64,000 bases of DNA from an uncultured delta proteobacterium (GTDB taxonomy: Bacteria > Desulfobacterota > Binatia > UBA9968). How positions within the stretch are numbered: position 1 is the stretch's first letter; every line of letters begins with the position of its first letter. The stretch lies in assembly GCA_963840855.1 (NCBI GenBank), contig CAWJBB010000030.1:64001-128000 (forward strand). The letters are read 5' to 3'. The position numbers were made by a program, and so were the translations under genes. Shown here piece after piece: positions 19,638-57,372 of the stretch. A model generated the notes under the pieces. It worked only from the letters and a program-made list of their open reading frames with translations. It was not told where the DNA came from and searched no databases.

Positions 19638-20621
19638 TCACGCCGATTCGAGCAGACCGCGTCGCACTAGATCCTGTGCCAACTTCACCTTGTAGACGTT
19701 GTCCTTCAATGGCTTAGCCCCTTCGAGGGCAATGACACCGGCTTGCTGGGCGACGGTGTCGTCGATCTTCTTGCCACGCAGGAAGGATTCGGCTCCTGGC
19801 GCGCGCCAGGGGATCGGCGCGACGCCGCCGAGGACCAGGCGTGCGTCGCGCGCTACGCCGCCGCTGCTTTGGACGACGGTAGCGACGGCGACGATGGCGT
19901 GATCCCAGGCCTGGCGCTCGCGGACTTTATGATAGTAACCTTTGCTACCGGCTTTCGGTGTCGGAACGAAAATCTCTGTGACGATTTCGCCGGTCTTGAG
20001 AACGTTTTCTCGTCTATAGTCCACCGATGGCAGCACGAAAAATTTCTCTAGGGGAATGGCTCTTTCACCCGCTGGCCCGGCGATCTTAATCTGCGCATCC
20101 AGTGCTACCAGCGCCGGGGCGGTATCCGACGGGTGGACAATGTAGCTCGGCCCGCCGCCCAGGATGGCGTGAAAACGGCCGTCGCCGGTCACGGTGTAAC
20201 AGAGCTGGCCGCCTTTTCGCAGGCAGTTGAAGTTTGAAGAGCGAAAATACCAGCAGAAGGGTCGCTGGCAGATGTTGCCGCCGATGGTGCCGGCGTTGCG
20301 AATCTGCGGCGAAGCTGCTTCACCCGCTGCCGTCGAGAGAATCAGCAGCTTATCACGCACGCCCGGATGATCTTCTACATCCGCCAGGGTTGTCAGCGCG
20401 CCGATACGAAAACCGCCGCGCTCCTCTTTGATCGTATTCAAACCGGGAATGGTTTTGAGGTTGATAACATAGTCGGGAGCCAGAACATCGTCTTTCACGA
20501 GCTGTAACGCTTCGCTGCCGCCGCCGACCACCAGGGCCGGCTTTTTTTCCTGATGGAATTTTTGCAGCAGCGCGACCGCCTGACCTACGCTTTTGACATC
20601 GATATTTTCAAATGACTTCAT
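19638..20621 (-). CDS. Xanthine dehydrogenase-family FAD subunit (PaoB/YagS-like) with 4Fe-4S insert
   Basis: GGGS, IGALTTL, ASPQIRNAGTIGGN, CQRPFCWYFR..CLRKGG.LC, HPSDTAPAL, LGGVAPIPWR. Confidence 0.9.
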   Translation of the reverse strand: MKSFENIDVKSVGQAVALLQKFHQEKKPALVVGGGSEALQLVKDDVLAPDYVINLKTIPGLNTIKEERGGFRIGALTTLADVEDHPGVRDKLLILSTAAGEAASPQIRNAGTIGGNICQRPFCWYFRSSNFNCLRKGGQLCYTVTGDGRFHAILGGGPSYIVHPSDTAPALVALDAQIKIAGPAGERAIPLEKFFVLPSVDYRRENVLKTGEIVTEIFVPTPKAGSKGYYHKVRERQAWDHAIVAVATVVQSSGGVARDARLVLGGVAPIPWRAPGAESFLRGKKIDDTVAQQAGVIALEGAKPLKDNVYKVKLAQDLVRRGLLESA

Positions 20622-20636
20622 CGGTTTCTTCCTCCA

Positions 20637-22850
20637 TCAGACCTGGCGCGCCTGCAAGATCTTGTCTGGTGTAATCGGCAACTCTTTGATCCGCCTTCCC
20701 GTGGCGTTGAAGATTGCATTGGCGATGGTCGCCACAGCGGGCGTGATCGGCGGCTCGCCCACTACTTTGCCGCCGAAGGGACCGAAGGGGTCTGGATGCT
20801 CGATAAAGATCACCTCGACCTCGGGCGCTTCCAGATGAGTCGGAACTTTGGCGTCGCGATAGTTGGGGTTGATGGGAATGCCGGTCACGCGGTCGGTGAT
20901 CAACTCCTCGGTAAAAGCCATGCCGATTCCCTGTACAATGCCGCCCTTGATCTGGCTCTCGGCGGCAAGCCGGTTAATGATCGTGCCGGAATCATGGGCC
21001 GCGACGTAGCGCGTAATGCTCACGTGGCCGGTCCAGGTATCGACTTCCACCTCGGCGAAATGCGCCGCGAAGCTTTTGCCTTCCACGTCTTTGAACGACG
21101 GGTTTGTCGTCGCGCGGCCGATGAGTTCACCGGCTCGTGAAACAACGCGCGCCAGTGGAAGCTTGCGTGAGGGCTCGGTCTTGACGAAAACTTCGCTGTT
21201 TCGCAGGTCCAATTCTTCCGCTTTAGCTTTTAATTGCCCGGCCGCAAGAGCAAAAATTTGCCGCCGCGCATCTTCGGCGGCGGCGATTACCGCCGGTCCG
21301 GTAAAAGGGGTCGTTCGGCTACCCGACTCGCCGACGGAATAAGGCGTCACATCGGTGTCACCGTTGGTAACCTGAAACTGATTGAGCGGAACACCGAGGG
21401 CCTCCGCGGCGATGATCGCCATGGTGGACTTGGCTCCGGTGCCGATGTCTGTGACACCGACTAAGAGATGCGCCGTGCCGTCGGGATTGACACGAATGGT
21501 CGCGGCCCCAAGGCCGGGCCGGAAAGGATATCCCCCCAGCGCCATACCGATGCCGTGCTTCTTAGCATCGCCCATGGCGCCCGGTTTATGCCATTTTTCT
21601 TGCCAGCCGATGCGCTTCGAACCTTCGACGATGCACTCGTCTAAATGATTTGAGGTGAATGGAATCTTGCTCTTGTACTTTTGAATCCGGTTCTTCGTGA
21701 ACATGTCGAGCGGGTTGAGACCCATCTCGTGGGCGATGTGATCGAGAAATGACGCAAAGCCGAAAACCGACTGCGGGTACGCCGGCGCGCGGTAGTTGGC
21801 GCCCACCACCGTGTTGGTGTGCACCGGTTTTATGTGCTTCTTGAAATTGGCGATCTGATAAAAATCGGTGCCGCTTAGGTTGCCGCTGGACTTCCGATAG
21901 GCGCCGACGTTGGTGACCGCGTCGAGGGAAACGGCCGTGATAGTGCCGTCTTTTTTCACGCCGATTTTGTATTTTTGCTCGGATGCCCAGCGGCCATGCA
22001 TGCCGATGTAGTCATCCTCTCGGGTGAACTCCAGTTTCACCGGCTGGTTGCAAATCCTGGCAAGCGCCGCCGCCATGTAATCGTAATCCTGCGCCTGGTT
22101 TTTGTTGCCGAAGCCGCCGCCCATATATTTGCACACGATGCGCACTCTGCTGAGCGGCAAATTAAAATCTTTAGCGATGTCCGTACGCGCATTGGAAACT
22201 CCCTGGGTGGAGGCGTACACGGTCAATTTGCCGGAATCCCATTTGGCGATGCTGACGCGCCGCTCGAGCTGCGCGTTGTTGGTATGCTTGGTAATGTAGG
22301 TATCTTCGAAAACCCGGTCCGCATCCTTGAAGCCCTGGTCGAGGTCGCCCCACGATTCTTCAATGGGGGCGCTGAAGTTGCCCTTGCCGACGGATAGATT
22401 GCCGTCGGTGGATATCTTCGGCGCGTCGGGCTTGAGCGCTTCATTAGCATCGAACACATGGGGCAACTTTTCATATTTGACTGCGATCAGCGCCAGCGCC
22501 TGCTCGGCGATATGCCGGTCCGTTGCCGCCACCGCCGCCACCGCGTCGCCGACGAAACGAACCGGGTTGTTAAAAATGAAGCGCGGGTGCGTGTGGCCGC
22601 CGCTGGACCAGGGAATCATCGCGTTGCCATGATGAATCACTGCCTTCACCCCCGGCAGTTTTTCGGCCTTGGATGCATCGATGCCGATGATTTTGGCGTG
22701 CGGGTGCGGGCTGCGCAAAACGCGCGCGTAGAGCATGCCCGGCAGCTGAATGTCGCCTGTATATTGCGCCTGACCGGTGACGCGTTCGTAGGCGTCGATA
22801 CGCGGGATTTTTTTGCCGACGACGGAAAATTCTTTTTGTGCCTGTGCCAT
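20637..22850 (-). CDS. Xanthine dehydrogenase-family molybdopterin subunit (PaoC/YagR-like)
   Basis: RIDAYERVTGQAQYTGD, LRSPHPHA, MGGGFGNK, DIGTG, GSRT, HDSG..IN, SQIKGGIVQGIG, GGKVVGEP, NAIFNATG. Confidence 0.92.
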   Translation of the reverse strand: MAQAQKEFSVVGKKIPRIDAYERVTGQAQYTGDIQLPGMLYARVLRSPHPHAKIIGIDASKAEKLPGVKAVIHHGNAMIPWSSGGHTHPRFIFNNPVRFVGDAVAAVAATDRHIAEQALALIAVKYEKLPHVFDANEALKPDAPKISTDGNLSVGKGNFSAPIEESWGDLDQGFKDADRVFEDTYITKHTNNAQLERRVSIAKWDSGKLTVYASTQGVSNARTDIAKDFNLPLSRVRIVCKYMGGGFGNKNQAQDYDYMAAALARICNQPVKLEFTREDDYIGMHGRWASEQKYKIGVKKDGTITAVSLDAVTNVGAYRKSSGNLSGTDFYQIANFKKHIKPVHTNTVVGANYRAPAYPQSVFGFASFLDHIAHEMGLNPLDMFTKNRIQKYKSKIPFTSNHLDECIVEGSKRIGWQEKWHKPGAMGDAKKHGIGMALGGYPFRPGLGAATIRVNPDGTAHLLVGVTDIGTGAKSTMAIIAAEALGVPLNQFQVTNGDTDVTPYSVGESGSRTTPFTGPAVIAAAEDARRQIFALAAGQLKAKAEELDLRNSEVFVKTEPSRKLPLARVVSRAGELIGRATTNPSFKDVEGKSFAAHFAEVEVDTWTGHVSITRYVAAHDSGTIINRLAAESQIKGGIVQGIGMAFTEELITDRVTGIPINPNYRDAKVPTHLEAPEVEVIFIEHPDPFGPFGGKVVGEPPITPAVATIANAIFNATGRRIKELPITPDKILQARQV

Positions 22851-22862
22851 GACGACCTCCTG

Positions 22863-23480
22863 TTAGCGAGCCTTCGCCGCGGCGAGTACCGCCGCGACCT
22901 CGCGGTTGTAGTTGCCACAGCGGCAAAGATTGCCCGATAGCCCGCGCCGCACTTCGGCTTCCGTCGGATTGGGCTTCTTCAGCAGCAATGCCTTGCCCGA
23001 CATGATCTGCCCCGGCGTGCAAAAGCCGCACTGCGGGCCGTCATGTTCGATAAATGCCTCCTGGACCGGATCGAGCTTGTCGCCCTTGGCCAGGCCCTCG
23101 ATGGTGAGAATCTCTTTGCCCTCCATCCACACCGCCAGCTGGCTGCACGAATACAGGTTGCGGCCGTTGATCATCACGGTGCAAGCGCCGCACTCGCCGC
23201 GGTCACAGCCGATCTTGGTGCCGGTGAGGCCGAGCTGGTCGCGCAGCACTTCGGCAAGCGTATTTCGGTGCTCGACTTCGACTTTATAATTCTTACCGTT
23301 GACTTTTAGGCTGAGAGTCGACCTCCCCCGCGCCGTCCCCACCGCTTCTTGGGTATAAGCCTCGACCTCGTCGGGCTTGACTAACCCCGTAGAGACCACG
23401 GCGGTGCCGATGGCCCCGCCGCCGATGCCTTTGAGGAAATCGCGCCGCGATACCCCTTTGCCATTTCTTTCTGCTTCCAT
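22863..23480 (-). CDS. 2x[2Fe-2S] subunit with a Tat signal (PaoA/YagT-like)
   Basis: SRRDFLK twin-arginine motif; GTKIGCDRGECGACTV, QCGFCTPGQI, GNLCRCG. Confidence 0.92.
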   Translation of the reverse strand: MEAERNGKGVSRRDFLKGIGGGAIGTAVVSTGLVKPDEVEAYTQEAVGTARGRSTLSLKVNGKNYKVEVEHRNTLAEVLRDQLGLTGTKIGCDRGECGACTVMINGRNLYSCSQLAVWMEGKEILTIEGLAKGDKLDPVQEAFIEHDGPQCGFCTPGQIMSGKALLLKKPNPTEAEVRRGLSGNLCRCGNYNREVAAVLAAAKAR

Positions 23481-24935: not shown

Positions 24936-25715
24936 TCAAGCTTCCGGTGAGAATTTTTGGTGGGGTTCTATAAGCGGCGACTCCCACTGGTAGCATCGAA
25001 TCGGGCGCGGATCGCCCTGTACTACTAGTGCCCCCTGGTATCCGACACAAAGAGTAAGCTCGGTTAGAGACCAGTCGGGCACGCTCGCATTAATCCGTAC
25101 CTGTTGATCAGCAGCCAGGGTAATTACAACTTCATCGAGCTTGCCCGACAAGCCCGTACCCTTAGCCTTTAAGAACGCTTCTTTGCTGGTCCAACATTTG
25201 AAGAAAGCTTCGCGCTGAAGCGTTTGCGGCAACTCGCATAGCGCCGCGACTTCTTTGGTGGTAAAGAACCGCCGGGCAAGCTCGTCGAAAGAAAATTGCC
25301 TCTTGACGAATTCCACATCGACGCCCACCGCTCTCTGCCGAGCGACGGCAACCAATGCGACCTCGTGGGAGTGGGAGAGATTGAACTCCAAACCGCCTGC
25401 GGCTTGTGGCGGAGCGAGCGCGGGTTTGCCTTGAGGTCCTGAGACAAAGTGAATCTCATCCGCGGCAACTCGCAGGTATTTAGCCAATAGCGAGCGCAAA
25501 GCGACATGGGCGGCGATATAAAGCCGGCGGTCTTTAACGAACTTGAACCGCGCGGCTCGCTCTTTCTCCTCTTCCGATAGGGACGTGGCCAAAAGGTCAG
25601 GGGGAATATCTTTCGCGCCAGCATTAACCAACCAGACATGAACTTCGTCGTCGTTCAGTTCGACGGCGTTAGGTGGCAAAGGCCAAAGGTTATCGGAACA
25701 TTCCGCGGCGGCCAC
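24936..25715 (-). CDS. Sfp-type 4'-phosphopantetheinyl transferase
   Basis: EVHVW, LSEEEKERAARF, GKP, FNLSHS, VGVDVE, FFKCWTSKEAFLKAKGTGL. Confidence 0.92.
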   Translation of the reverse strand: MAAAECSDNLWPLPPNAVELNDDEVHVWLVNAGAKDIPPDLLATSLSEEEKERAARFKFVKDRRLYIAAHVALRSLLAKYLRVAADEIHFVSGPQGKPALAPPQAAGGLEFNLSHSHEVALVAVARQRAVGVDVEFVKRQFSFDELARRFFTTKEVAALCELPQTLQREAFFKCWTSKEAFLKAKGTGLSGKLDEVVITLAADQQVRINASVPDWSLTELTLCVGYQGALVVQGDPRPIRCYQWESPLIEPHQKFSPEA

Positions 25716-27451: not shown

Positions 27452-27790
27452 TTAGGCCAGCTTTTCATTCTGGTTTTCCGCGCCGCCTTTTACAATCACC
27501 CGATTGCCGTCGCGGCAGATGTCCAGATCGCAGGGACCGTTAAAGAAAATCATCGTGCGCGGGTGCTCATAGACCGTTGTCTTGTGCGGAATTTCCTCGA
27601 CGTAAATGTCGAAGATCGTGCCTGCAGGCAGGTTGACGGTTTTCGTGTGCATGAGGTCGCCTTCGAAGATAACCTCGATCCAGGAGCGGTTCTCCGAGAC
27701 GGCGAGAATGACACCGGCGGCGTTTTTAATCGTCGCGATCGGTTCTTCAGCGCCAGCGTCATTCATATTGCCAGGATTGAAGCTTTTCAC
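27452..27790 (-). CDS. Hypothetical beta-rich protein
   Basis: 112-aa ORF co-oriented with its neighbours; no family recognised. Confidence 0.6.
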   Translation of the reverse strand: MKSFNPGNMNDAGAEEPIATIKNAAGVILAVSENRSWIEVIFEGDLMHTKTVNLPAGTIFDIYVEEIPHKTTVYEHPRTMIFFNGPCDLDICRDGNRVIVKGGAENQNEKLA

Positions 27791-27881: not shown

Positions 27882-29411
27882 CTAATTAGCCAGCAACGTC
27901 TGGGCGTCACGGATCGTCTTGCCGGATGACGTGCGCGGCAGCGACTCGCGTATGACAATTCGATCGGGCACTTTGAAGTTAGCCAGATTGGAGCGCAGAA
28001 AAGTCAGCAGTTCTTTCTCAGCGACACTGGCGCCCGACCGCGGCACGACGGCGGCGCCGATCACTTGACCGCGTTTCGGATCAGGGATCGCGAAAACGAT
28101 CGTCTCCTGGACGCCGGGATAAGTGTAAATCAGATTCTCAACCTCCGCCGGATAGACGTTGAGGCCGCCGGTGATAATCATGTCGTCGCGCCGCCCCAGA
28201 TGATAATAATAGCCATCGGCCTCGCCCTTGCCGACATCCCCGGTATGGAGCCATTCGCCGTGGATGCGCTCCGCGGTGGCCGCGGCCTTGCGAAAGTATC
28301 CTTTCATCACGTGCGGGCCGCGAGTGATGATCTCGCCTGGTTCGCCCACGGGAACTTCGTTGCCATTCTCGTCGACGATCCTCACCTCCACTCCGGGAAC
28401 CGCCCGTCCAATGCTGCCCATCTTGGTCACCGCCCGTTCGGGTTCAACCAGCGTGATTAGCGGCGAAGTCTCGGTAAGCCCGTACCCCTGTATGACTTTG
28501 ATATGGGGCTGTGCCTGCTTGAAAGCTTGCAGCAGCGGCAGCGGCACGCTGGTGCCCATCATAGCCGCGATTTTGACGCTGCTGGTATCGTAGTCGGCAA
28601 GGTTTTTTACGCCCAGTATCAATTGAAAAATAATCGGCACGCCTTCGAAAACCGTCACACGGTGTTTCTGAATCCCCTCGAGCAGCGTGATGGGGTTGAA
28701 CTGATCGAAGATCACGAGCGTATAGCCTTTTTCGGCGACTTCGTTGCACACGATGGGTCCAACGATATGTGACATGGGCAGAATGCAGCCGCGCATGGTA
28801 TCGGAATCGGTGACACCCATGTCGCCCATCACCGCCGGGTATTGCGTCAGGTTGTGATAGCTCAAGACCACGCCCTTGGGCTCGCCGGTGGTGCCCGAGG
28901 TGTAAAGAATCAGCGCGTCGTCGCCCGGCTTCAGCTTCGGTGGACTTAAGGAGGTCGCCGGCGCCGCAAATTTTGCCTCGAAGCTCCGTTCACCGGCAGC
29001 GCCGACGATCCACAGGGGGATCCGCGCCATCGCTTTGAACAGCTCCTCGACTTCGGGTAGTAACTGGTTATGCACCACCAAAAGTTTGAGATCGGCATCC
29101 GTCAAGACGTTTTGCAGCTCGATTCCTTTGAGCCGCGCATCGAGGATGACGGTGACGGCGCCGATCTTTTGCGTGGCGTAGTAGCTCAGGGGAATGGCCG
29201 TGGAATTCGGCAAGAGAACGCCCACCCGATCGCCTTGGCGGATGCCCTCCTGTCGCAGATGGCCGGCCAATGCGTGCACGCGCTGATTGAGCGCGGCAAA
29301 AGTAAGCTCTTCTTCCTTGGCGATGATCGCCGTCTTGTTCGGCTTGCGCTCAGCCGTCTTGTCTAACAACTCCGCCGCGTAAAAGCCTACTGAATGGGTA
29401 TCGTTTGCCAT
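27882..29411 (-). CDS. Acyl-CoA synthetase / class I adenylate-forming enzyme
   Basis: LYTSGTTGEPKG, QGYGLTE, GEIITRGPHVMKGY, HTGD, GGLNVYPAEVE, LPRTSSGK. Confidence 0.93.
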   Translation of the reverse strand: MANDTHSVGFYAAELLDKTAERKPNKTAIIAKEEELTFAALNQRVHALAGHLRQEGIRQGDRVGVLLPNSTAIPLSYYATQKIGAVTVILDARLKGIELQNVLTDADLKLLVVHNQLLPEVEELFKAMARIPLWIVGAAGERSFEAKFAAPATSLSPPKLKPGDDALILYTSGTTGEPKGVVLSYHNLTQYPAVMGDMGVTDSDTMRGCILPMSHIVGPIVCNEVAEKGYTLVIFDQFNPITLLEGIQKHRVTVFEGVPIIFQLILGVKNLADYDTSSVKIAAMMGTSVPLPLLQAFKQAQPHIKVIQGYGLTETSPLITLVEPERAVTKMGSIGRAVPGVEVRIVDENGNEVPVGEPGEIITRGPHVMKGYFRKAAATAERIHGEWLHTGDVGKGEADGYYYHLGRRDDMIITGGLNVYPAEVENLIYTYPGVQETIVFAIPDPKRGQVIGAAVVPRSGASVAEKELLTFLRSNLANFKVPDRIVIRESLPRTSSGKTIRDAQTLLAN

Positions 29412-30382
29412 AGCGCAAATGCCCTTTGAAATGGTTTATACCAGCGCGAAAGTTGCGCCAGTTCGCCGCGTTTGAGTTTCAATTTTCCCTGCTGAGTGGC
29501 GAGAAACGGATCGATGCGCGCGCGAAATACCGCTTCCCACCACTCAACTTTGCCGCTGATCATGAATTCGCCGCCAGCGCTCGGTAGAAGCTCGGTGATC
29601 TCACCATTCAAATATCGCACCGTCCAGGCGTCATTAGTTTCTTCGAGATGGAGCGTCAACGACGTCGTGAGCGCCGTGTCGGCGCCATGGGCGCGAAATT
29701 GGGAATCTTGATTCGCCGAGTCGACCAGCGCCTGCATGTGTTCCTTGGAGAATAGCGCGAAACGCTCACCCGACGCCGTCGCGGCGGGTTGTTCCGGCCT
29801 TGCGCTTGTCGATGCCGCGGCGGCAATCTCCGCTTTCTCGATAAAGAATTGACACTGCACCGCTTCTTCCAGCAAATCGGTGTAGAGGAACGCCTCCTGG
29901 AAATTCTTGCCGATGGCGACCGTGCCATGACCCTTGATGATCACAACTGGATTGTACCTGAGTGCCTCCACTACTTCTTCGGGTTTGGTCACCGTCGGCG
30001 TGTCCTGCGCAATGACGGACACCTTGCCGATGGTATATTTTTCTTCGTAACTCACGGGCGCGAAGCTGTCGTGGGTGAGAGAAAACGCCAGCACCATCGG
30101 CGGGTGGACATGGACGATCGCTTGGGCATCCGTGCCGTCGTAAACCGCCAAGTGCATCGGTGTCTCGCTCGACGCGCGCAGGCCCTTGCGCGCCGGCTTG
30201 CCATCCGATTTCAGCCTGACCAAATCTTTGGGCGCGAGAAAACCCAGTGGCGCGTGCTGTCCGGTGATCAGAAAATCATTCTTACCGACGCGGCAACTCA
30301 AGTTACCGCCCCAGCCGCTGATGAGCCGCCGCTCGAAGAGCAGCTTGCCCCAGCGAATCATTTCGCTTTCCGGCTTGGCCAT
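29387..30382 (-). CDS. Class II aldolase/adducin domain fused to an SCP2 (sterol-carrier-like) domain
   Basis: GNLS, SSETPMH, VHVHP, GHG in the N-domain; C-domain FMISG...W..VF...IDP..A..QGKLKL..G. Confidence 0.85.
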   Translation of the reverse strand: MAKPESEMIRWGKLLFERRLISGWGGNLSCRVGKNDFLITGQHAPLGFLAPKDLVRLKSDGKPARKGLRASSETPMHLAVYDGTDAQAIVHVHPPMVLAFSLTHDSFAPVSYEEKYTIGKVSVIAQDTPTVTKPEEVVEALRYNPVVIIKGHGTVAIGKNFQEAFLYTDLLEEAVQCQFFIEKAEIAAAASTSARPEQPAATASGERFALFSKEHMQALVDSANQDSQFRAHGADTALTTSLTLHLEETNDAWTVRYLNGEITELLPSAGGEFMISGKVEWWEAVFRARIDPFLATQQGKLKLKRGELAQLSRWYKPFQRAFALWQTIPIQ

Positions 30383-30395: not shown

Positions 30396-31913
30396 CTAAT
30401 CTTTGAACAATCCCCAGGGAACTACTTCCTCCTCAACGGACCGAACGGCAACGCCGGCGGGGCAGATCTTTTTACCCATGAAGGTCGAAACGTCGCTATC
30501 ACGCGGCGAATCGCTGCGTTCGTCGCCGTTGAAGAGTTCGATGGGCACACCATGCAGACGCGCTAGCTGTACGGCTAGGAGCGATCCGCAGATCCCTGTC
30601 GGCCCTGCTTCGCCCAGGCTACCGTAGAAAAGGCAAAGCTTGAGAATCTCCCCCTGGGCGAATAGCGCACCCATCATGTTGTCCGAAATTAAAGTCGTAG
30701 GCACATTGCGCTCGAGCAGATCCCGCGCGACTACCCGGGCGCCCCAGAGCTGTGGCCGCATCTCGGGGACGAGAACGCTCTCAGCCCGATCTGCCTTTAA
30801 CGCGCTAAGCAAGAATGAATATTGACTCTTTGGCGGAACGCCGTAGAGCAAAATATATTTGCCGCTCGCCTCGCTCTGATTGTCATCGGCTTCAACCTTA
30901 CCCTGATACTTCCGGCAAAAAGATTCCGGCGTGTAGAGATCGTCGAAGCCGACTAAGTGCGTGATCAACGCCGCCGGCGTCATATCGAACGATGGGTAAC
31001 GCGCGCTAAGCCCGCTTAGCCCTCCGGCAACCAGCGGTTGTCCGTCAAAAATCAGCAACTCATGAGCCGGGCGCTCCTCGATACGCACGTCGGTACCGCG
31101 TTCAAGCGAGCGTGGATCTTGTACCAGAGCGTGGAAAGGCACGCCGTACTCCTTTGCCAGCCGCGCGATGGGGTAGGTGCCAACCTTGTTGATGATGTCG
31201 CCATTGCGCGCCGTACGATCCGCGCCGACGATCACGCCGTTGACTTCGCCGTTGGCCATCACTTGCGCGATCGCACAATCGGGGATCGACGACACTGGCA
31301 CGCCCGCTTGTGCGAGTTCCCAAGCGGTCAACCGCGTGCCTTGTAAGTAAGGCCGCGTCTCGGTGGCGATCACGCTGAATTCTTTCCCAAGCTCTTTGCA
31401 ATGCCGCGCCACCGCGACCAATTCGCCGCTCACGTTACAGTGCGTCAGCACGCGGGCCGGATTTGGTAAGATTGCGGCTGCGCGCTTGGCCCGCGCGTGG
31501 CGCCCGCGCACGATCTGCTGGGCCAACTCGAGCGCCTGGCGCGCGATGGTTTCGCCGGCGCCCGCGTCCTGCGGCAACTTCTTACACCATTCTTCGAAGT
31601 AAGAACCCAGGCCCTGGAAATCGAAAGTTGGCCGGGCCGCGCAAAACTGCTCCGTCATCTGGGACAGGCTCCGGCTGAGCGGCGCGGCGTCCACGCCAGA
31701 GTAATTTTGCGCCACCAAGGCGCCGCTGTAAAGAAAGGTCAGTACCTGGCCGAAGGCACGGGTCTTCATGTCGCGCACGGCATCCAGTGCCTGGGCGACT
31801 TCGCTAACATGAATGTACTCAATCTTCTCGGGAACTTGAATTTCGTCGAGAATTTCAAAGCCCCGCCCGCGCCACAGAACCGGCTCGAACAGGGGGCTTT
31901 GAGCGGCGCTCAT
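30396..31913 (-). CDS. Methylthioribose-1-phosphate isomerase (MtnA)-like protein with a duplicated C-terminal domain
   Basis: ILDE..P, RPT, THCN, ETRPYLQGTRLTAWEL, VGADR..NGD..NKVGTY, IEERP, FDMTP; an extra ~150 aa repeats the Rossmann domain. Confidence 0.85.
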   Translation of the reverse strand: MSAAQSPLFEPVLWRGRGFEILDEIQVPEKIEYIHVSEVAQALDAVRDMKTRAFGQVLTFLYSGALVAQNYSGVDAAPLSRSLSQMTEQFCAARPTFDFQGLGSYFEEWCKKLPQDAGAGETIARQALELAQQIVRGRHARAKRAAAILPNPARVLTHCNVSGELVAVARHCKELGKEFSVIATETRPYLQGTRLTAWELAQAGVPVSSIPDCAIAQVMANGEVNGVIVGADRTARNGDIINKVGTYPIARLAKEYGVPFHALVQDPRSLERGTDVRIEERPAHELLIFDGQPLVAGGLSGLSARYPSFDMTPAALITHLVGFDDLYTPESFCRKYQGKVEADDNQSEASGKYILLYGVPPKSQYSFLLSALKADRAESVLVPEMRPQLWGARVVARDLLERNVPTTLISDNMMGALFAQGEILKLCLFYGSLGEAGPTGICGSLLAVQLARLHGVPIELFNGDERSDSPRDSDVSTFMGKKICPAGVAVRSVEEEVVPWGLFKD

Positions 31914-32082: not shown

Positions 32083-32817
32083 TTAGAGATATTGCAGCGC
32101 CCTGCGCGCTACTTCGATGGTTTTCTGCTCCGCTGCGAGAAAGACCGGATCGCGAAAGCCGAATTTACCATGTAGACATTCATCGGAAACCGCGAGCACC
32201 GCGCCGGCTTTCTTGCCTCGCACCTGGGCGACGGTCAGAAACGTCGACGTGACCATGTCGATGCTCGAAACATGCTGCTCGTTCAGTTGCCGGATCAATT
32301 CCGGCGTCTCTTGAAATAAGGCGTCGGTGGTGAAGATCCAACCGAGATGGCAGCGTACGCCGAGACTCTCCGCCGCCTGTTTCAAGGCGTTGACAATATC
32401 AGGGTGAGCCAGGGTCGAGAAGCTTTCCGCGACGTAATAACGCGACGTACCATCGCCGCGCAGCGCGCCGGTGACGATTACCAAATCGCCGATTACAACG
32501 TACTCTTGCAACGAGCCGCAGCTACCGATGCGGATCAGCGACTCTGCTCCGGCGCCGCATAGAATCTCCGTGGTGATTGCCGTGTCGGGAGCGTAGCGGC
32601 CGCCGTTGCCGACTGTTACCCGTTTTCCATCCAGGTTCCCGGTATGCATTTCATAGTCTAAAAACGTGAAGTTCCTTTGCGGATTGTCCACGGTTTTCAA
32701 AATTAGATCGCTGCGTTCCTTAGGACCGGGAATCAACGCGTATGGACCAAGTGAGTCCTGTTTGAGCCCCAGCATATTTAACATGCGCTGCGCTGTAAAA
32801 TGAGGTTCCTTTAGCAT
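32083..32817 (-). CDS. Nucleoside phosphorylase (PNP/UDP superfamily), variant active site
   Basis: ALIPG..R, IRIGSCGSL, GDLVIVTGALRGDGTSRYY, TTDALFQE, IDMV in place of VEME, LAVSD; ATG 32817. Confidence 0.85.
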   Translation of the reverse strand: MLKEPHFTAQRMLNMLGLKQDSLGPYALIPGPKERSDLILKTVDNPQRNFTFLDYEMHTGNLDGKRVTVGNGGRYAPDTAITTEILCGAGAESLIRIGSCGSLQEYVVIGDLVIVTGALRGDGTSRYYVAESFSTLAHPDIVNALKQAAESLGVRCHLGWIFTTDALFQETPELIRQLNEQHVSSIDMVTSTFLTVAQVRGKKAGAVLAVSDECLHGKFGFRDPVFLAAEQKTIEVARRALQYL

Positions 32818-32819
32818 GA

Positions 32820-34045
32820 TTAGAGGGCCTGAACGGCGAACTCGAGCAAGTCTTGGGTCGGTAGGCCGAGTTCTTGGCAATCGTTGAAGCTGCGCTGGCA
32901 GAGCGCGCTCGAAGCCAGTAATAATTCAGCGCCGCTCCGCTTGGCTTCCTGCAATCGGTCCGCGGCACTCCATTGGGCCAATTCCGGATCGGCCTCGGGG
33001 ACCCCACCACCGCCGCCGCAACACCAGGCCCAGCGGCGGTTTCGTCCCATCTCGACCAGTTTGACGCCAGGAATCGCGCGGATGATCTCTCGCGGCGGAT
33101 CGTAAACACCGCAGCCCCTGCCGAGGTGACAAGAGTCATGGTAGGTTACCGTCATGCTCACTGCTTTAGTGAAGCTAACGCGCCCCGCGCGCAGGAGATT
33201 TGCGACATGCTCGACGCCGTGAATGATTTCGGCACCCAACTCCGGCTGCTTGGCATGTTCGCGCCAAGCGCGCAGGCAACTACCGCAGGCGACGACTATA
33301 TTTTTGACGCCCGATTGCTTTGATCGTCGCAATATTGTCTTTCTGCAACCGGTCATATTCACGGCGAAAGCCGAGATCATGGGCAAAAAGACCGCAACAC
33401 TTTTCATCGGCGCCGAGAATCGCGAAGTCGTCGCCGGCCCGTTGCATAAGCCGCGCCAACGCCACGGCGCCGCCGCGCCCGCTCGGCCGGTCGGCCGAAC
33501 AACCGGCGAACAGCAAAGTCTTGCGCGGTTGCAGAACCAAGTTTCTTTAATCCCAACCCCTCAGCCCACCCGCCGCGCAACGCTTTGATCTGGCCCCAGG
33601 GATTGTCGTGTTGGTTGAGCCCTTCGTAATGCGAACGGTGCGCTTCGATGGGTCCGTCTTTTTCCGTGATCTCCTCGCGCATGGCGACGGTGATTTCCCA
33701 GGGCCCGTAGCCATCGTCGCGCACGCCGCATAGCTCCTGGCACATGAGACAGTTGGTGCAGGCGTAAATGACCTCTTTGAGTTCCGGCGTGATCGGATCA
33801 AGGCCATGAAAGACGCGCTGGGCCATGAGCCAACGTGACTTCGGCGTATGGCGCTGAAAGCGGTAAAACTCGTAGGGCGGACACTTTTCTTTGGGCCCGG
33901 GAAGGTCCTCCATCGGATTGGCCGGACCATGGCCGTAGCATGACCCGCACAGAACGCAGCCCGCGCTGCGCTCTTCGAGCCCTTTGGCATAAAGCCATCT
34001 CTTGACTCGTTCGAGACCTATCGGTTTCTTGTCTTCAGTTTTCAC
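32820..34045 (-). CDS. (Fe-S)-binding oxidoreductase, HdrD/GlcF/GlpC-like with two CCG domains; frameshifts near 33520 and 33325
   Basis: CVLCGSC..CP and CTNCLMCQELC; HDNPWG; FAGC, EKCCG, CGSC; TYHDSCHLGR, YDPPR, WCCGGGGG spread over three overlapping ORFs. Confidence 0.85.
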
Positions 34046-34124: not shown

Positions 34125-34625
34125 TCAGGAGTCTTGTTTGAGCTTGCGTAGGAGCGCGGAGAGTTCTTTTTGCTGCGCCTTGTCGAGGTTAGTGAAAATC
34201 CCGGAAATGCTTTTTTCAAATAGCGGGATGGCATTCTTAAAAAGCTTAGCGCCTTTGTCGGTTAACACCACATGCACGACGCGGCGGTCATGCTCATCGC
34301 GTTCGCGCAAAACCAGCTTTTTCTCTGCCAAGCGGTCGACGATGCCGGTCAAGTTGCTCACCGTCACCATCATTTTCGCGCCAATTTCTCCGAATGGAAG
34401 GCGGCCGGCATAGCCGATGGTCGCGAGCACGTAAAACTGCGGTGGAGTAAGACCCTGCTTTTCCAGATCAGCTTCCAACTTTTTGTGCGATTGCAGATTG
34501 AAGCGCAGAAAGCGTACCCATAAACTGGTGGTATAGGACGAAAAGAAGGGCCGCTTGTAAACTACCACGGCGCTCACTCTATTCGCGCCGTCGGGAAAAA
34601 TCAACTCGGTCTTTCTCACTTTCAC
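34125..34625 (-). CDS. MarR-family transcriptional regulator (true start probably near 34568-34577)
   Basis: GLTPPQFYVL, SNLTGIVDRL..KKLV.R....DRR...V.LT.KG. Confidence 0.92.
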   Translation of the reverse strand: MKVRKTELIFPDGANRVSAVVVYKRPFFSSYTTSLWVRFLRFNLQSHKKLEADLEKQGLTPPQFYVLATIGYAGRLPFGEIGAKMMVTVSNLTGIVDRLAEKKLVLRERDEHDRRVVHVVLTDKGAKLFKNAIPLFEKSISGIFTNLDKAQQKELSALLRKLKQDS

Positions 34626-44494: not shown

Positions 44495-45278
44495 TTACCA
44501 AGACGGGCTAATGAATACTTGCGGTTTTTCGCCGGAAGGGTCTAGTTCAACTCGAACCCGGATGTCGTAAACTTCCTCGATTGTTTTCTCGGTCAGGACT
44601 TCGCGGGGCGATCCGTCGCGATAGATTTTTCCGTCCCGAAGCATCGCCAGCCGAGGAAAAAAGAGCGCCGCAAGATTGACGTCATGCAGCGCGGCGACGA
44701 TGGTCAGGCCGCGCTCGCGGTTGAGCCGCCGCAGAAGCTCAAAGACCTGGACCTGATGTTTGAGGTCGAGAAAGGCCGACGGCTCGTCCAGCAAAAGAAT
44801 TTCCGGTTCCTGCGCCAGGGCGCGGGCGATCATCACGCGTTGTTTCTCTCCGCCGCTCAACTCATGGAGATAGCGGTGCGAGAGCGATAGGGAATCGGTC
44901 AACTCCATGCTCGCGCGGGCGACTTCGAGGTCTTTTTTCCCCTCGAGGGCGAAGGGACTATGATAGCTGGCTCTTCCCATCATGACGATTTCCGCTACGG
45001 TGTAATGGAAAACTGACGCGGCTTTCTTGCGGCACCACGGCAAAAAGCCTGCTCAGCTCCCGTCTGCCGTAGGTTTCAATGGGTCGACCGTTTAGTTTGA
45101 CTTCGCCTTGCCCGTTCAGGACCGCCGAGAGAATTCTGATGAGAGTCGTTTTCCCCGAGCCGTTGGGTCCGAGAATACCGACCATTTCGCCGCGTTCAAT
45201 GGAAAGCAGGACGCCGCGGAGCACCGCGCGGTCTTTGTATGCGAAGTACAGTTCGCAGGTCTCGATGGCTGGATTCAC
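44495..45278 (-). CDS. Cobalamin ABC transporter ATP-binding subunit (BtuD/FecE-like); frameshift near 45010
   Basis: GPNGSGKTT and VVPQE, then LSGGEKQRV, LLLDEP, LHDVNLA. Confidence 0.88.
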
Positions 45279-46312
45279 ATAGCCAACTTTCTCGTGCCCT
45301 CGCGGTAGAGAAGAAAGAGGAAAAAGGGGCCGCCAAAGAAAGCGGTGACGATACCCACGGGCAGCTCAGCGGGCGCCAGTAAGATGCGCGCAAGCGTGTC
45401 CGCCCAAGCCAAGAAAATCCCGCCGGCCAGAAAAGATGCCGGCAGCAAGAGCCGGTGATCGCTGCCGACGATGAGGCGCATCACATGCGGGACCATCAGC
45501 CCAACGAACCCGATCATGCCGCTCACTGAAACCATGGCGCCGATCATCAACGACGAAGCGATGAAAATCTGGCGCTGGAGCGCGCCGGTTTCGACGCCCA
45601 ATTGCATTGCCGCTTCCTCGCCCAAGGTGATCAAATTCAGTGAAAGACCCTTCGCCCACAGCCAGAGAAAGCCGAAAATGATGTAGGCCCAGATAAAAGC
45701 GACGGTGAGATAAGCGCGGGTCGAAAGGCTGCCCATGAGCCAGAAAAGCAGTCCCTGGGCCTGATAGAAATCTACGATAGAATTCAAAAACATGATCACG
45801 GCGGCGATGAATGAATTGAAAATGACGCCGGACAGCAGCAGGTGATAAGGGTGAAGGCGCCCGTGGAATAATGAGAAGCGGTAAACCAGCATCATGCTTA
45901 ATAGCGCACCGAGAAACGCTGCCAACGGCACCCAGGAGATTTCCCCGAGCAGTCCCCCTCCCATCGGCAGGAGCCAGTGGGGGAAAAAGACAAGCCCCAG
46001 GACTCCGCCCAAGGAGGCGCCTCCGGATACGCCAAGCATCTGCGGACAGGCAAGCGGGTTACCGAGTAAGGCCTGGAGCACAACGCCGCAGGCCGCCATG
46101 CCGCCGCCGATGGCGACTCCCAGTAGGACACGCGGCAGACGCGCGCGATAAAGAATTTCCGCGTCCGGATTCGCGGCAAAGATATTTTGCAAAGCCTGCG
46201 AGAAATCGAGACGCACCGGCCCGAGCAAAGCGCAACCGATGACGGAGATAACCAATAGCGCCAGCAGGATGCCGTTGACCCAAAGCATCTTACTACGGTC
46301 GAGAACTTTCAC
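45275..46312 (-). CDS. btuC: Cobalamin ABC transporter permease (BtuC/FecCD)
   Basis: RLPRVLL, NPLA.P..LGVSGGA, WLMGSL, LGEEAA.QLG, GMIGFVGLMVPH, ELPVG..TA..GGPFF; GTG start 46312. Confidence 0.88.
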   Translation of the reverse strand: MKVLDRSKMLWVNGILLALLVISVIGCALLGPVRLDFSQALQNIFAANPDAEILYRARLPRVLLGVAIGGGMAACGVVLQALLGNPLACPQMLGVSGGASLGGVLGLVFFPHWLLPMGGGLLGEISWVPLAAFLGALLSMMLVYRFSLFHGRLHPYHLLLSGVIFNSFIAAVIMFLNSIVDFYQAQGLLFWLMGSLSTRAYLTVAFIWAYIIFGFLWLWAKGLSLNLITLGEEAAMQLGVETGALQRQIFIASSLMIGAMVSVSGMIGFVGLMVPHVMRLIVGSDHRLLLPASFLAGGIFLAWADTLARILLAPAELPVGIVTAFFGGPFFLFLLYREGTRKLAM

Positions 46313-47210
46313 AGCCAATTCCTTCACTAGGTCCGCGTTTTGATTCCGCGAAGCACTCCGGATGAACGAGGCGGGCGATTTCTTCCAGCCCTTCGCCGAT
46401 GCGCGGCCCAGGGCGCAGGATTTTGTCTGACTGGTAGGCATAAACCCGCCGCTCCTTCACTGCGGGAATGGACGCGAGATCCGACCAGTTTTTGCCCGAT
46501 GGTCCGCGCTCCGATCCCATTCCGGCCTCGATGATGACCTGCGGTGCTTTGGCGACAACGTACTCATCAGGCAGATTGAGCCAGGGTTGAGCGGCGTTGC
46601 CGGCAATGTTTTTACCGCCGGCCAAAGTAATGAGCTCGTCGATAAAATTTTTTCCTCCGACTGCCACCAGGGGCCGAAGTCCTACCGCCAATAGAACGGA
46701 GCGGCGCGGCGCGGGCGCCACGCGTTTCTTTACTTCGTCGAATTGCAGGGTAATTTTGCGAACGAGTTTTTCCCCTGCTTGCGGACTTCCCAACAAACGG
46801 GCGATGCTCTTAATGGAATTCAAAATGTCGCTCACACTCGCGAGTGAAATCAAAGTCACTTTAAGACCGAGGCGTTCCATCTCTCTCGCCTTCACCGGGT
46901 CGGTGGCGCTGCTGACGCCGATCACGAAGTCCGGCTGTTTTGCGACGATCGCTTCAAGACTGGGACTCATAAAGCCGCCGATCTTGGGAACCTTCTGCGC
47001 TTCAGCAGGATAGTCGCAATAGGTCGTTACGCCGACCAGGCGATCGCCAAAGCCGAGCGCATATAGCGTTTCGGTCACACTGGGGGCCAGGGAAACGATT
47101 CTTGTAGGGCGAGGCGCGGCGGCTGGCTGGGCCAGTACGTCAAGCGCGCACGCAACGATCAGGCTCGCAACCGACAAACAAACCGTGATGATTCGCTGCG
47201 AAGGATTCAT
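46293..47210 (-). CDS. btuF: Cobalamin-binding periplasmic protein (BtuF-like)
   Basis: RIVSLAPSVTETLYALG, VGVTTYCDYP, IGG, PD.V, RPGPR; ATG 47210. Confidence 0.88.
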   Translation of the reverse strand: MNPSQRIITVCLSVASLIVACALDVLAQPAAAPRPTRIVSLAPSVTETLYALGFGDRLVGVTTYCDYPAEAQKVPKIGGFMSPSLEAIVAKQPDFVIGVSSATDPVKAREMERLGLKVTLISLASVSDILNSIKSIARLLGSPQAGEKLVRKITLQFDEVKKRVAPAPRRSVLLAVGLRPLVAVGGKNFIDELITLAGGKNIAGNAAQPWLNLPDEYVVAKAPQVIIEAGMGSERGPSGKNWSDLASIPAVKERRVYAYQSDKILRPGPRIGEGLEEIARLVHPECFAESKRGPSEGIGCESSRP

Positions 47211-47940
47211 CGCGATCCCAGCGCCAACATGACAAATACTGAGGTTTCGCTCAATTCTCCGACGGCGCCGAAAATATCGCCGGTCACGCCCCCTAAACGG
47301 CGGTGAAAAAAGTTCTTGCTCACGATAGTGAAGACGGCGACCCAGACCATCATGGCGATGCCGACGCCATGCAAGACCGCCGCGACCAAAAGGAGGGCGA
47401 TCAAGGTTGCGAAGAGAAAATGTTTGGTGTCCAGGTGATCGATTAAGGTCGAACCCAGTCCCGGTTTTGCGGCGAGTGAGCGGTAACCCAACAGCACCAT
47501 CGCCCAACGGCCCAAAACCGGCGCTGCCAGGAGTCCACGCCAGCGATCGCCGCCGATGCTCTCGATGGCGTGGATTTTAAAAAACAGCAAAAGGACAATC
47601 GCGATCAGACCAAAGGTACCGATGTGACTGTCATCCATGACGCGGAGAATGCGTTCCCGGTCGCCGCCGGCGCCCAGGCCGTCAAAAGTATCGCCGAGGC
47701 CGTCCAGGTGAAGGCCGCGTGTCAGCAGGGCTAGCAAAGTTACCAGCGCCACGCTCGACAGCACTGGGCTTGCAAACGGCTCCAGCAAGACATTCACCAG
47801 CACTAGGATCAAGCCCAATAAGAAGCCAATGACGGGAAAGAAAATTACCGAGCGGTCCCACTTCGTCGAGCCGAGCGCTCCATGCGCTTCGGCCAGGGAA
47901 AGATGGTCAAAAACTGAAGCGCCGCGAAAAAGGAATTCAC
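47207..47940 (-). CDS. cobS: Adenosylcobinamide-GDP ribazoletransferase; 1-2 frameshifts near 47855-47870
   Basis: ALQFLTIFP, FPVIG, TRGLHLDGLGDTFDG, MDDSHIG.FG, GGVTGDIFGA..E. Confidence 0.9.
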
Positions 47941-48992: not shown

Positions 48993-49519
48993 CCAATTTC
49001 CTTCTTGACGATCATCGGAACGCCGGCAACCGTGAGGACGACTTCATTCGCCGCTGCGGCGAACTGCTGATTGGCCCAACCCGTCAGGTCGCGAAACTGA
49101 CGCGCCAGCATATTATCCGGCACGATGCCCCAGCCGACCTCGTTGGTGACCAAAACGAGGTGAAAATCCAACTGCGGCAATGTTTCAATCAGCTCTTCAA
49201 CTTTCCGGACGGCATATTTCCCGTCTCGCCGCAGCAGGAGGTTGCTAAGCCAAAGGGTCAGGCAATCTACCAGGGTGCAATCGGTTCGACCGCGCTGCGC
49301 CAGAAGCGCTTCGGCCAATTCAAAAGGTTCTTCAATAGTCGCCCACTCCTTGCCGCGCCTGCTTTTGTGTTCGCTGATACGTCGGGTCATTTCTTCGTCT
49401 TTGGGTTCTGCAGTGGCGACGTAGAGGCGGCGGGAACCTAATGCTGCGGCACGTTGTTCGGCGTAGATACTTTTTCCCGAGCGCGCGCCGCCGGTGATCA
49501 ATATAATCTGCGTGGCCAT
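48989..49519 (-). CDS. cobU: Bifunctional adenosylcobinamide kinase / cobinamide-phosphate guanylyltransferase
   Basis: ITGGARSGKS, YVATA, EM..RI..H..RR, VDCLTLWLSN, VTNEVGWGIVP, FRDL.G..NQ; ATG 49519. Confidence 0.95.
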   Translation of the reverse strand: MATQIILITGGARSGKSIYAEQRAAALGSRRLYVATAEPKDEEMTRRISEHKSRRGKEWATIEEPFELAEALLAQRGRTDCTLVDCLTLWLSNLLLRRDGKYAVRKVEELIETLPQLDFHLVLVTNEVGWGIVPDNMLARQFRDLTGWANQQFAAAANEVVLTVAGVPMIVKKEIG

Positions 49520-49523
49520 CACA

Positions 49524-51586: not shown

Positions 51587-51628
51587 GGATAATCTTCAAT
51601 CGGAGGCAACGCCGCTAGTCGTTGTACC

Positions 51629-52297: not shown

Positions 52298-52416
52298 TGC
52301 CGCGATTATGCAGAACCTCTACACGCGGCGACGAAACCTCGGGCAAACTCGGGGTTCGAGCCGGCAACGACGAATGCGGGCAAAGGTCGCATGGTCCTTG
52401 CTGCTTATGATTCAGT

Positions 52417-53983: not shown

Positions 53984-54056
53984 CTACTCTTTCTCTTTAC
54001 CAACTATGATCACCGGCCCACGATCGTCGTGCGCAGCAACTACTTTGTGGCCGCGG

Positions 54057-55037: not shown

Positions 55038-55078
55038 CTGTTCCTCAAAGGTTTTTCGTCCGTACGGTTAGGTGAAAG

Positions 55079-57360: not shown

Positions 57361-57372
57361 GAATGTTCACTG

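Follow-up and report, generated by a model that had tools for sequence, protein, structure and literature searches.

The stretch of DNA analysed here (the window) was 64,000 nucleotides long and came from an uncultured delta proteobacterium of the class Binatia (contig CAWJBB010000030.1, positions 64,001 to 128,000). On its minus strand, at 29387..30382, an open reading frame (ORF) with an ATG start and a stop codon at 29387-29389 was found to encode a 331-amino-acid protein, aldolase-SCP2, in which a class II aldolase was joined through a linker to a domain of the SCP2 (sterol carrier protein 2) fold. The gene belonged to an operon that was conserved in distant bacteria and may serve the cleavage of a 5'-modified ribulose 1-phosphate. 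The protein was divided as follows:

29387..30382, minus strand: whole ORF, class II aldolase, linker and SCP2 (AlphaFold2 model, predicted local distance difference test score (pLDDT) 91.2, predicted TM score (pTM) 0.85)
29819..30382, minus strand: aldolase domain, residues 1-188 (Pfam PF00596, invariant columns, Foldseek)
29768..29818, minus strand: Ala/Pro-rich linker, residues 189-205 (low pLDDT, low pairwise identity)
29390..29767, minus strand: SCP2-fold domain, residues 206-331 (AlphaFold2 model, Foldseek, family-level Pfam)

The catalytic domain matched Pfam Aldolase_II (PF00596) over residues 7-178 (E 2.1e-38, 132.5 bits against a cut-off of 22.2). A FucA-type aldolase with a catalytic Glu and metal ligands had been proposed in an initial annotation made from the sequence, and the motifs SSE (residues 71-73), HVH (91-93) and GHG (151-153) were all present. 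When 26 full-length relatives that shared 26-88% identity with the window protein were aligned, G26, N27, S29, E73, H77, H91, H93, E113, H152, G153, G158, E172 and F286 proved invariant in every row. His91, His93, His152 and Glu73 aligned with their equivalents in the Thermus thermophilus FucA, and we take Glu73, His92, His94 and His155 of the E. coli FucA to correspond to E73 and the metal ligands H91, H93 and H152, respectively. Judged from the Thermus alignment and the FucA numbering, the catalytic Glu, all three ligands of the metal and the residues of the phosphate site (G26, N27 and S29) belong to the invariant set.

The nearest catalytic domains found by Foldseek, and the closest solved ones, were those of T. 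thermophilus HB8 FucA (2fk5 and 2flf; TMt 0.84-0.87, 30-32% identity, sequence E 1.1e-17), which share the short form and carry no SCP2. The E. coli FucA has a long C-terminal tail. Other structural matches included YgbL, the E. coli FucA (TMt 0.78-0.80) and DrdA of Bacillus thuringiensis (6btd and 6btg; TMt 0.81-0.82). The latter was 24-25% identical to the aldolase domain (E 1.5e-9) and occupied structural ranks 31-34, behind the Thermus FucA, YgbL and the E. coli FucA. DrdA resembled the fusion in its class II fold, the metal-binding His triad and Glu, the neighbouring genes for a phosphorylase or kinase and an MtnA-paralogous isomerase, and the expected products, dihydroxyacetone phosphate (DHAP) and an aldehyde. 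However, DrdA and Ald2 were single-domain proteins of about 200-215 amino acids, whereas the fusion had 331 and carried SCP2. Ald2 is the aldolase of the DHAP shunt in Rhodospirillum rubrum and E. coli. The best NCBIfam-type match was PRK08660 (136.6 bits), and no NCBIfam equivalog cut-off was reached. The MtnB model TIGR03328 gave 59.3 bits against a cut-off of 137.05, the haloarchaeal ribulose-1-phosphate aldolase model NF053831 gave 64.7 bits against 300, and APIP, with 16% identity, ranked 48 by structure. By its sequence and predicted fold, the catalytic domain was assigned to the metal-dependent class II sugar-phosphate aldolases of the FucA/DrdA type.

The initial annotation had also recognized an SCP2-like tail, and RIDPFLATQQGKLKLKRG was located at residues 288-306. 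The C-terminal part was borderline by sequence alone; two T. thermophilus SCP2 chains matched residues 269-319 at E about 0.003. A HMMER search with residues 190-331 against 1.84 billion cluster representatives (50% identity) yielded 70 matches at E <=0.001, of which 29 were scanned with Pfam. All 19 full-length representatives scanned (321-342 amino acids) exceeded the Aldolase_II cut-off and 14 of them exceeded that of SCP2, which was also passed by 8 of the 9 short representatives (109-151 amino acids). An AlphaFold2 model of residues 190-331, built from a 44-row alignment, had a pLDDT of 92.9 and a pTM of 0.82, and its comparison with the PDB by Foldseek returned SCP2-type folds only (35 matches at E <=0.001). 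The best match was the Thermus SCP2 protein 1wfr/2cx7 (E 4.5e-10 to 4.8e-9, TM score 0.75-0.84, root-mean-square deviation 1.8-2.9 A), followed by AF1534, the C-terminal domains of alkylsulfatases, UbiJ-SCP2 and the SCP2L domain of MFE-2, with 20-21% identity at best. Since most full-length family representatives passed the Pfam cut-off and the predicted structure matched SCP2 folds, the identity of the modeled domain was regarded as settled, and the tail seen earlier was borne out as a fold. The same fold is found in the stand-alone proteins TT1886 (1wfr/2cx7) and AF1534 (3bn8). In the alkylsulfatases SdsA1 and Pisa1 and in MFE-2 it is fused C-terminally to an enzyme, as it is here, but none of the SCP2 partners in alkylsulfatases, UbiJ and MFE-2 is a sugar-phosphate aldolase. 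Hydrophobic residues occupied 38 positions of the domain in at least 85% of the 26 sequences, as any folded core would show likewise.

In the full-length model, pLDDT fell below 50 at residues 189-201 only, so that the linker was disordered; an Ala/Pro-rich stretch, expected from the initial annotation, lay at about residues 186-205. Because the pTM of the full-length model was 0.85 despite the disordered linker, SCP2 is predicted to sit at a defined position on the catalytic domain. The mean pairwise identity among the 26 sequences was 0.37 for SCP2, 0.39 for the aldolase and 0.11 for the linker. SCP2 was thus conserved as strongly as the catalytic domain, which by this sequence measure places the fusion under selection. 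Of 1279 homologues at E <=0.001, the best 120 included 118 with a query coverage of 98% or more and an identity of 73-100%, and hundreds of relatives carried the fusion. Since full-length homologues recurred this widely, the fusion is genuine and no assembly artefact. No solved chain spanning both domains of the model was found among the Foldseek PDB matches (TMq <=0.52). A dedicated search gave no longer fused forms at E <=1e-10, which is weak evidence. One cluster representative of 694 amino acids, P0178, held a radical SAM (S-adenosylmethionine) enzyme of the B12-binding N-terminal type, a partial class II aldolase and SCP2 in one frame, and may be either a true fusion or a gene-call artefact.

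The operon and its conserved gene context

The gene of aldolase-SCP2 was the fifth of seven co-directional minus-strand genes, when the Fe-S pair was counted once. The isomerase stop was separated from the aldolase start by 13 nt, and the end of the aldolase gene overlapped the ligase start by 25 nt. Close relatives (66-97% identity) were found with the single protein as a query at six loci of Candidatus Binatia genomes (L001-L006); an orthologue was also present in G050, a genome of a sister family. The remaining genes of the operon were:

34125..34625, minus strand: MarR-family regulator, heading the operon (kept in L002-L006 and G050)
32820..34045, minus strand: Fe-S protein pair, overlapping ORFs (Fer4_8 and CCG domain, HdrD/TfrB/DsrK-like; L001-L006)
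32083..32880, minus strand: nucleoside phosphorylase of the hexameric PNP/UP/SsMTAP type (Pfam PNP_UDP_1, E 6.4e-34)
30396..31913, minus strand: MtnA-paralogous isomerase, 505 amino acids (Pfam IF-2B, E 8.7e-55)
27882..29411, minus strand: AMP-forming acyl-CoA-type ligase (Pfam AMP-binding, E 4.4e-88)
27452..27790, minus strand: 112-amino-acid protein downstream of the ligase, with no Pfam or NCBIfam match (kept in L001 and L004)

The phosphorylase, whose true start is probably near residue 22, scored below every NCBIfam cut-off, including 21.6 bits with HpnG, and was not MtnP-like. Its nearest named families were the uridine and DeoD-type purine nucleoside phosphorylases, and its PDB neighbours were uridine phosphorylases, the T. 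thermophilus purine nucleoside phosphorylase and the Sulfolobus methylthioadenosine phosphorylase. The isomerase scored 220.3 bits with TIGR00512 (salvage_mtnA) against a cut-off of 279, within a range of 220-247 bits for MtnA, and 113.8 bits with ribose-1,5-bisphosphate isomerase. It contained an extra C-terminal piece of ~170 amino acids (about residues 350-500, 30396-30941) with a second, partial IF-2B match (E 8.2e-8). This piece was fused in Binatia (proteins of 505 and 502 amino acids) and formed a separate ORF of about 163-165 amino acids in most Omnitrophota loci. The best NCBIfam match of the ligase was PRK06187, a long-chain-fatty-acid-CoA ligase (440 bits, cut-off 476), and its PDB neighbours were feruloyl/fatty-acyl-CoA synthetase, FadD5 and FadD13, not acetyl-CoA synthetase. 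The Fe-S pair consisted of a Fer4_8 protein of 213 amino acids and a CCG protein of 195 amino acids with a 4-nt overlap and looks, by its domains, like a split Fe-S oxidoreductase of the HdrD/GlcF/TfrB type. It was present in the operon of Binatia family f1 only and was missing from G050 and the Omnitrophota loci.

A canonical MtnA was encoded elsewhere in the source genome (441.8 bits, cut-off 279) and in 5/5 Omnitrophota genomes (407-464 bits). This was considered as a sign of a special substrate and was dropped, as proven 5-deoxyribose clusters show an isomerase paralogue beside a canonical MtnA elsewhere (PMC6079011).

The phosphorylase, isomerase, aldolase-SCP2 and ligase genes were collinear in 6/6 Binatia loci. 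The CCG protein was present in all six, and the Fer4 and MarR proteins were found in five, the remaining locus being cut. For distant loci, the search was made with a 10-row alignment, and a pattern derived from the SCP2 domain identified at least 231 fusion relatives in species-representative genomes, mostly of Omnitrophota. All counts of distant loci refer to the best 80 of the 231 relatives (30-45% identity), nearly all of which were labelled Candidatus Omnitrophota or Planctomycetia and which included the complete genome of Candidatus Velamenicoccus archaeovorus. The isomerase adjoined the aldolase in 77/80 of these loci, the three misses being cut at the locus end. The phosphorylase was present in 58 loci and the ligase in 50, where it stood first rather than last. 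The neighbours were clustered de novo and one representative per cluster was scanned with Pfam and NCBIfam, which gave an Omnitrophota order of PadR, ligase, phosphorylase, isomerase, aldolase-SCP2 and aldehyde dehydrogenase. Behind these came one or two radical SAM enzymes that bind B12, a reductase similar to ApbA/PanE, a TIGR04076 protein, ketosynthases of the FabF-like type and an acyl carrier protein (ACP). In a second Omnitrophota arrangement, a cyclase, an SRPBCC protein, a major facilitator superfamily transporter, a short-chain dehydrogenase/reductase (SDR), a radical SAM enzyme and an amidohydrolase were encoded upstream. The aldehyde dehydrogenase was found in 76/80 loci, and in 67 of the 74 long enough to show it, it lay <=600 nt downstream. 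An aldehyde product therefore fits, given that this gene follows directly after the aldolase. A B12 radical SAM gene lay <=6 kb away in 42 of the 52 loci that extended 4 kb to either side, and a ketosynthase was present in half of the loci (40/80).

A second cluster of like logic, without SCP2, was observed on contig C62 of the source genome (L128:7173-11108, minus strand). It comprised genes for an aldehyde dehydrogenase (506 amino acids), an AMP-forming ligase (523 amino acids), a class II aldolase (236 amino acids), an NMT1/THI5-like binding protein and a protein similar to phosphoenolpyruvate mutase/isocitrate lyase.

Contigs from RNA libraries of soil and rhizosphere (4 runs from 3 studies) matched parts of the operon with a likeness of at least 92%, and at least 7 pieces lay within or bridged the aldolase-SCP2 ORF. 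The cover was patchy with many empty bins, no operon-wide transcript was seen, and the peak at 28855-29065 corresponded to the AMP-binding motif of other organisms. Such libraries can hold DNA, so the pieces are a hint of transcription only.

Distribution of the fusion and of its partner genes

The distribution within the class was examined in 121 genomes that were at least 80% complete. The aldolase was found in ten of them, namely the source genome, 7/7 other members of family f1, and one genome from each of two sister families, G050 and G082. In the latter two, the match ended at residue 181-191, and the genes encoded 197 and 189 amino acids, respectively, with Aldolase_II only. The genome of G050, a complete single contig, kept the MarR, phosphorylase, isomerase (502 amino acids), aldolase and ligase genes in order, without the Fe-S pair. 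In G082 (L127:8322-11891), the phosphorylase and the unfused 189-amino-acid aldolase occurred without the isomerase or ligase; after them came an ORF resembling periplasmic binding proteins and one for an amidohydrolase. No SCP2 relative was found in either genome by PF02036 or by the family profile, whose matches all ended at or before position 225.

The origin of the unfused forms was addressed with a 49-row aldolase-domain tree, a quick maximum-likelihood search with SH-aLRT support only. The 34 fused and 2 unfused proteins formed one clade (SH-aLRT 91), and the two unfused orthologues nested within a 16-row clade of fused proteins (SH-aLRT 97). As they nest inside the fused clade, the simplest reading of the tree is that the two sister lineages lost SCP2 secondarily. 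The SCP2-less orthologue of G050 offers a natural control. Further, the fusion was the only class II aldolase gene in 3/5 Omnitrophota genomes and the best-scoring one in 5/5, while 16 such genes were present in the source genome.

The radical SAM enzymes neighbouring the fusion in Omnitrophota were B12-binding and BchE/HpnJ-like, and scored below all cut-offs. No radical SAM gene stood beside the operon among the ORFs scanned in the 64-kb window. A full-length orthologue with 39% identity was encoded on contig C10 of the source genome, unlinked to the operon; its neighbours there were SDR, FAD-oxidase, haem-oxygenase-like and O-methyltransferase-like genes. At E <=1e-80, this orthologue was detected in 8/121 class genomes (the source, six of the seven other f1 members and G050), all of which carried the aldolase operon, and in 0/111 genomes without the aldolase. 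A single query gave seven radical SAM matches in the source genome. The co-distribution with one radical SAM family argues for a specialised rather than a general role of the module.

A second protein combining SCP2 and a class II aldolase was encoded on contig C40 of the source genome:

L108:4694-8695 (C40, about 204.7-208.7 kb), plus strand: 1333-amino-acid four-domain protein (Pfam domains, within the hopanoid cluster)

Its four domains followed one another as FGGY kinase, D-2-hydroxyacid dehydrogenase, SCP2 (scoring 50 bits) and class II aldolase, with a kinase in place of the phosphorylase route. The surrounding hopanoid cluster encoded a polyprenyl synthetase, a squalene synthase, a squalene-hopene cyclase, HpnB, a B12 radical SAM enzyme, an acyltransferase and an HpnG-like phosphorylase (183.3 bits, cut-off 187.1), with HpnH (543.9 bits, cut-off 225) about 2 kb beyond. 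In this setting, a conceivable task of the 1333-amino-acid protein is to cut the polyol tail off an extended hopanoid. The two aldolase domains were 31% identical, that of the larger protein fell on a long branch outside the clade of the 331-amino-acid family, and when the family alignment was compared by profile with the last third of the larger protein, only the aldolase parts aligned. Owing to the opposite domain order and the position of its aldolase outside the clade, it was concluded from the sequences that SCP2 joined class II aldolases twice, independently.

Proposed reactions and their alternatives

A phosphorylase, an isomerase of the MtnA type and an aldolase of class II constitute the phosphorylase variant of the DHAP shunt for 5-deoxyribose disposal (PMC6079011), a pathway proven for DrdK/DrdI/DrdA and for phosphorylase variants. 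By analogy, the module is best read as an extended route of this kind, leading from a nucleoside to an acyl thioester. The operon differs from the DHAP shunt in the added acyl-CoA-type ligase, in Omnitrophota also in the aldehyde dehydrogenase, and in a phosphorylase of the hexameric PNP/UP type, not MtnP. Because a phosphorylase, an MtnA-like isomerase, an aldolase and a ligase are encoded together, an aldehyde X-CH2-CHO derived from a 5'-modified nucleoside is the expected product.

The reactions, the direction of the flux, the group X and the ligand of SCP2 were proposed as follows. The phosphorylase would strip the base from a 5'-deoxy-5'-X nucleoside to give X-ribose 1-phosphate, which the MtnA-paralogous isomerase would convert to X-ribulose 1-phosphate. 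The aldolase, with a metal on His91, His93 and His152 and Glu73 as the acid/base, would break the C3-C4 bond to release DHAP and X-CH2-CHO. The aldehyde would then be oxidised, in Omnitrophota by the aldehyde dehydrogenase, and the resulting acid would be adenylated by the ligase and turned into a thioester. SCP2, placed on the catalytic domain, would hold an apolar part of the substrate or product. The initial annotation had identified both domains correctly and had not seen the operon; rather than being a fucose-type enzyme, the protein stands at the third step of a phosphorylase/isomerase/aldolase/ligase operon.

This reading was accepted with moderate confidence: a 5'-modified ribulose 1-phosphate is cleaved, the aldehyde is oxidised and thioesterified, and SCP2, an accessory kept by selection yet dispensable, probably holds an apolar part. 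Several circumstantial points suggest an apolar X: the ligase type, the ketosynthase, ACP, SRPBCC, cyclase and B12 radical SAM neighbours, a phosphopantetheinyl transferase near the Binatia operon, the conservation of SCP2, the link with one radical SAM family, and the 1333-amino-acid counterpart in a lipid cluster. SCP2 probably holds this apolar group. In view of the ligase type, the lipid and polyketide neighbours and the conservation of SCP2, it is plausible that, as suggested earlier, the aldolase yields a hydrophobic product which SCP2 captures or channels.

A number of observations speak against this proposal. As G050 keeps the operon with no SCP2 relative in its genome, the chemistry does not need SCP2, and capture or channelling by the domain is weakened by orthologues that lack it in an otherwise intact operon. 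The sole match of the C-terminal part of the window protein was Pfam SCP2 (PF02036) with E 0.039 and 14.7 bits, below the cut-off of 21.3. The co-distribution with the radical SAM family involves kin that are not independent, so it amounts to two or three events and supports no statistic. The radical SAM neighbours were not of the known adenosyl-adding kinds, which we take to be HpnH and MqnE, and enzymes such as these neighbours release plain 5'-deoxyadenosine. Since the fusion was the sole class II aldolase in 3/5 Omnitrophota genomes and a canonical MtnA was present, it may also serve the ordinary disposal of 5'-methylthioadenosine (MTA) and of 5'-deoxyadenosine. Finally, the source genome was assembled in 93 contigs with a completeness of 94% and a contamination of 8%, and assignments outside the contig of the window carry some risk; its HpnH and radical SAM genes, which lie on other contigs, had their best matches in family-f1 genomes.

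The chief rival was an ordinary DHAP shunt for 5'-deoxyadenosine and/or MTA (X = H or SCH3), in which acetaldehyde or methylthioacetaldehyde is oxidised and CoA-activated and SCP2 has a structural, oligomerisation or regulatory function and binds no lipid. It was taken as a serious possibility, though a less probable one. The gene trio follows the same logic as the proven pathway, including a cluster-specific isomerase paralogue beside the canonical MtnA (PMC6079011). The frequent B12 radical SAM neighbours, which release 5'-deoxyadenosine, the sole-aldolase status in the three Omnitrophota genomes and the intact G050 operon that lost SCP2 point in the same direction. A small substrate, however, agrees less well with an SCP2 domain that two phyla have conserved as strictly as the catalytic domain, and with a ligase of the fatty-acyl/aryl type rather than an acetyl-CoA synthetase. 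The phosphorylase was not MtnP-like and reached no NCBIfam cut-off, and the module tracked one radical SAM family (8/8 vs 0/111) although the genomes hold many radical SAM enzymes. Biosynthetic trimming, as opposed to waste disposal, was considered rather unlikely. Here a radical SAM enzyme of the co-distributed B12-binding family would attach a 5'-deoxyadenosyl group to a greasy scaffold of lipid or polyketide, or leave it there, and the phosphorylase, isomerase and SCP2-aldolase would cut it back to a C2 aldehyde, to be oxidised and thioesterified for the neighbouring ketosynthases.

Ordinary nucleoside catabolism, from ribose 1-phosphate through ribulose 1-phosphate to DHAP and glycolaldehyde, was judged very unlikely. 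The cleavage of ribulose 1-phosphate to these two products is the last step of the haloarchaeal non-carboxylating pentose bisphosphate pathway. The nearest phosphorylase families, the NF053831 match and the GlcF/HdrD-like pair upstream in Binatia agree with such a route, but that match was far under its cut-off, the isomerase was closer to MtnA than to ribose-1,5-bisphosphate isomerase, the Fe-S pair was missing from G050 and Omnitrophota, and neither the ligase nor SCP2 would have a place. Similarly improbable was another chemistry of the class II aldolase fold, such as MtnB-type dehydration, decarboxylation, epimerisation or oxygenation instead of aldol cleavage. YgbL, AraD, decarboxylases, pyruvic oxime dioxygenase and APIP were among the structural matches, and an extra invariant Glu113 and the lack of an equivalog match would be compatible with it; yet the best matches were of the FucA type (PRK08660 and 2fk5), MtnB and APIP matched poorly, the FucA-type Glu73 and phosphate site were invariant, and an aldehyde dehydrogenase follows in most loci. 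The trimming of adenosylhopane was the least credible of all. Its base would be removed, the ribosyl tail isomerised and cut to DHAP and a C32 hopanoid aldehyde, and the latter oxidised and CoA-activated. Adenosylhopane is a 5'-lipid-substituted adenosine (PMC13459092), SCP2 would suit a hopane, and the source genome has HpnH, squalene-hopene cyclase, an HpnG-like protein and HpnB on C40. However, the operon and the hopanoid cluster were on different contigs, the cluster encodes a phosphorylase and an SCP2-aldolase protein of its own, and the operon phosphorylase was barely similar to HpnG. HpnH, present in 75/121 class genomes (a tally that includes G088, unpublished), was not found at E <=1e-60 in 5/8 fusion-carrying f1 genomes (G007, G016, G042, G058 and G106; 96-100% complete), and squalene-hopene cyclase was found in 0/5 Omnitrophota carriers, four of them whole chromosomes. 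Because of these absences, a hopanoid was ruled out as the general substrate.

With its three enzymes, the DHAP shunt is known to detoxify and recycle small by-products of SAM. In the cleavage of 5'-modified ribulose 1-phosphate proposed here, the same chemistry is tied to a lipid-carrier domain and to a ligase that activates acids, and in two uncultured phyla also to a single family of B12 radical SAM enzymes and to ketosynthase/ACP genes; the module occurs in hundreds of environmental genomes. A small by-product as the substrate would mean a new ending of the shunt, from aldehyde to thioester, and a larger adduct a new biosynthetic logic. If true, the trimming route would be a new means of placing an activated C2 unit at a carbon that is itself unactivated, while SCP2 grips the scaffold during cleavage. 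The loss of SCP2 in two sister lineages, one of which keeps the operon, the phyletic comparison with hopanoids and the co-occurrence with one B12 radical SAM family are new. No publication joining SCP2 or sterol carrier protein with class II aldolase, fuculose, 5-deoxyribose or the DHAP shunt, and none on the Omnitrophota radical SAM/ketosynthase/aldolase cluster, was found in a literature search that left most subscription journals and supplements outside. As far as these searches go, the architecture of PF00596 and PF02036 is recognisable in public sequences and apparently undescribed in the literature.

Other genes around the operon

An Sfp-type 4'-phosphopantetheinyl transferase was encoded near the operon at 24936-25715 (minus strand) and was kept in L002 and L004; its presence may point to a carrier protein as the acceptor of the ligase. 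Between 25920 and 27375 (minus strand), a FliK-like protein (390 amino acids) and a 93-amino-acid FlhB C-terminal-domain protein were found, with no further flagellar gene among the window ORFs scanned.

The region 44495-59437 was devoted to cobalamin salvage and uptake and encoded a BtuCDF-like transporter, CobT, CobU, CobD, CbiB, CbiZ, a CobQ-like protein, a PduO-type adenosyltransferase, CobS and TonB. The TonB-dependent receptor was seemingly split into a Plug part (56647-56997) and a barrel part (55079-55774). The region is of note because the partner enzyme of the module is B12-dependent.

A three-subunit molybdenum hydroxylase of the xanthine dehydrogenase/aldehyde oxidoreductase family lay about 4 kb beyond the operon (19638-23480, minus strand) and was syntenic in L004. 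It consisted of a 2Fe-2S subunit with a Tat signal, a molybdenum cofactor (MoCo) subunit and an FAD subunit, and by its family it is a candidate for the aldehyde-oxidising enzyme of Binatia.

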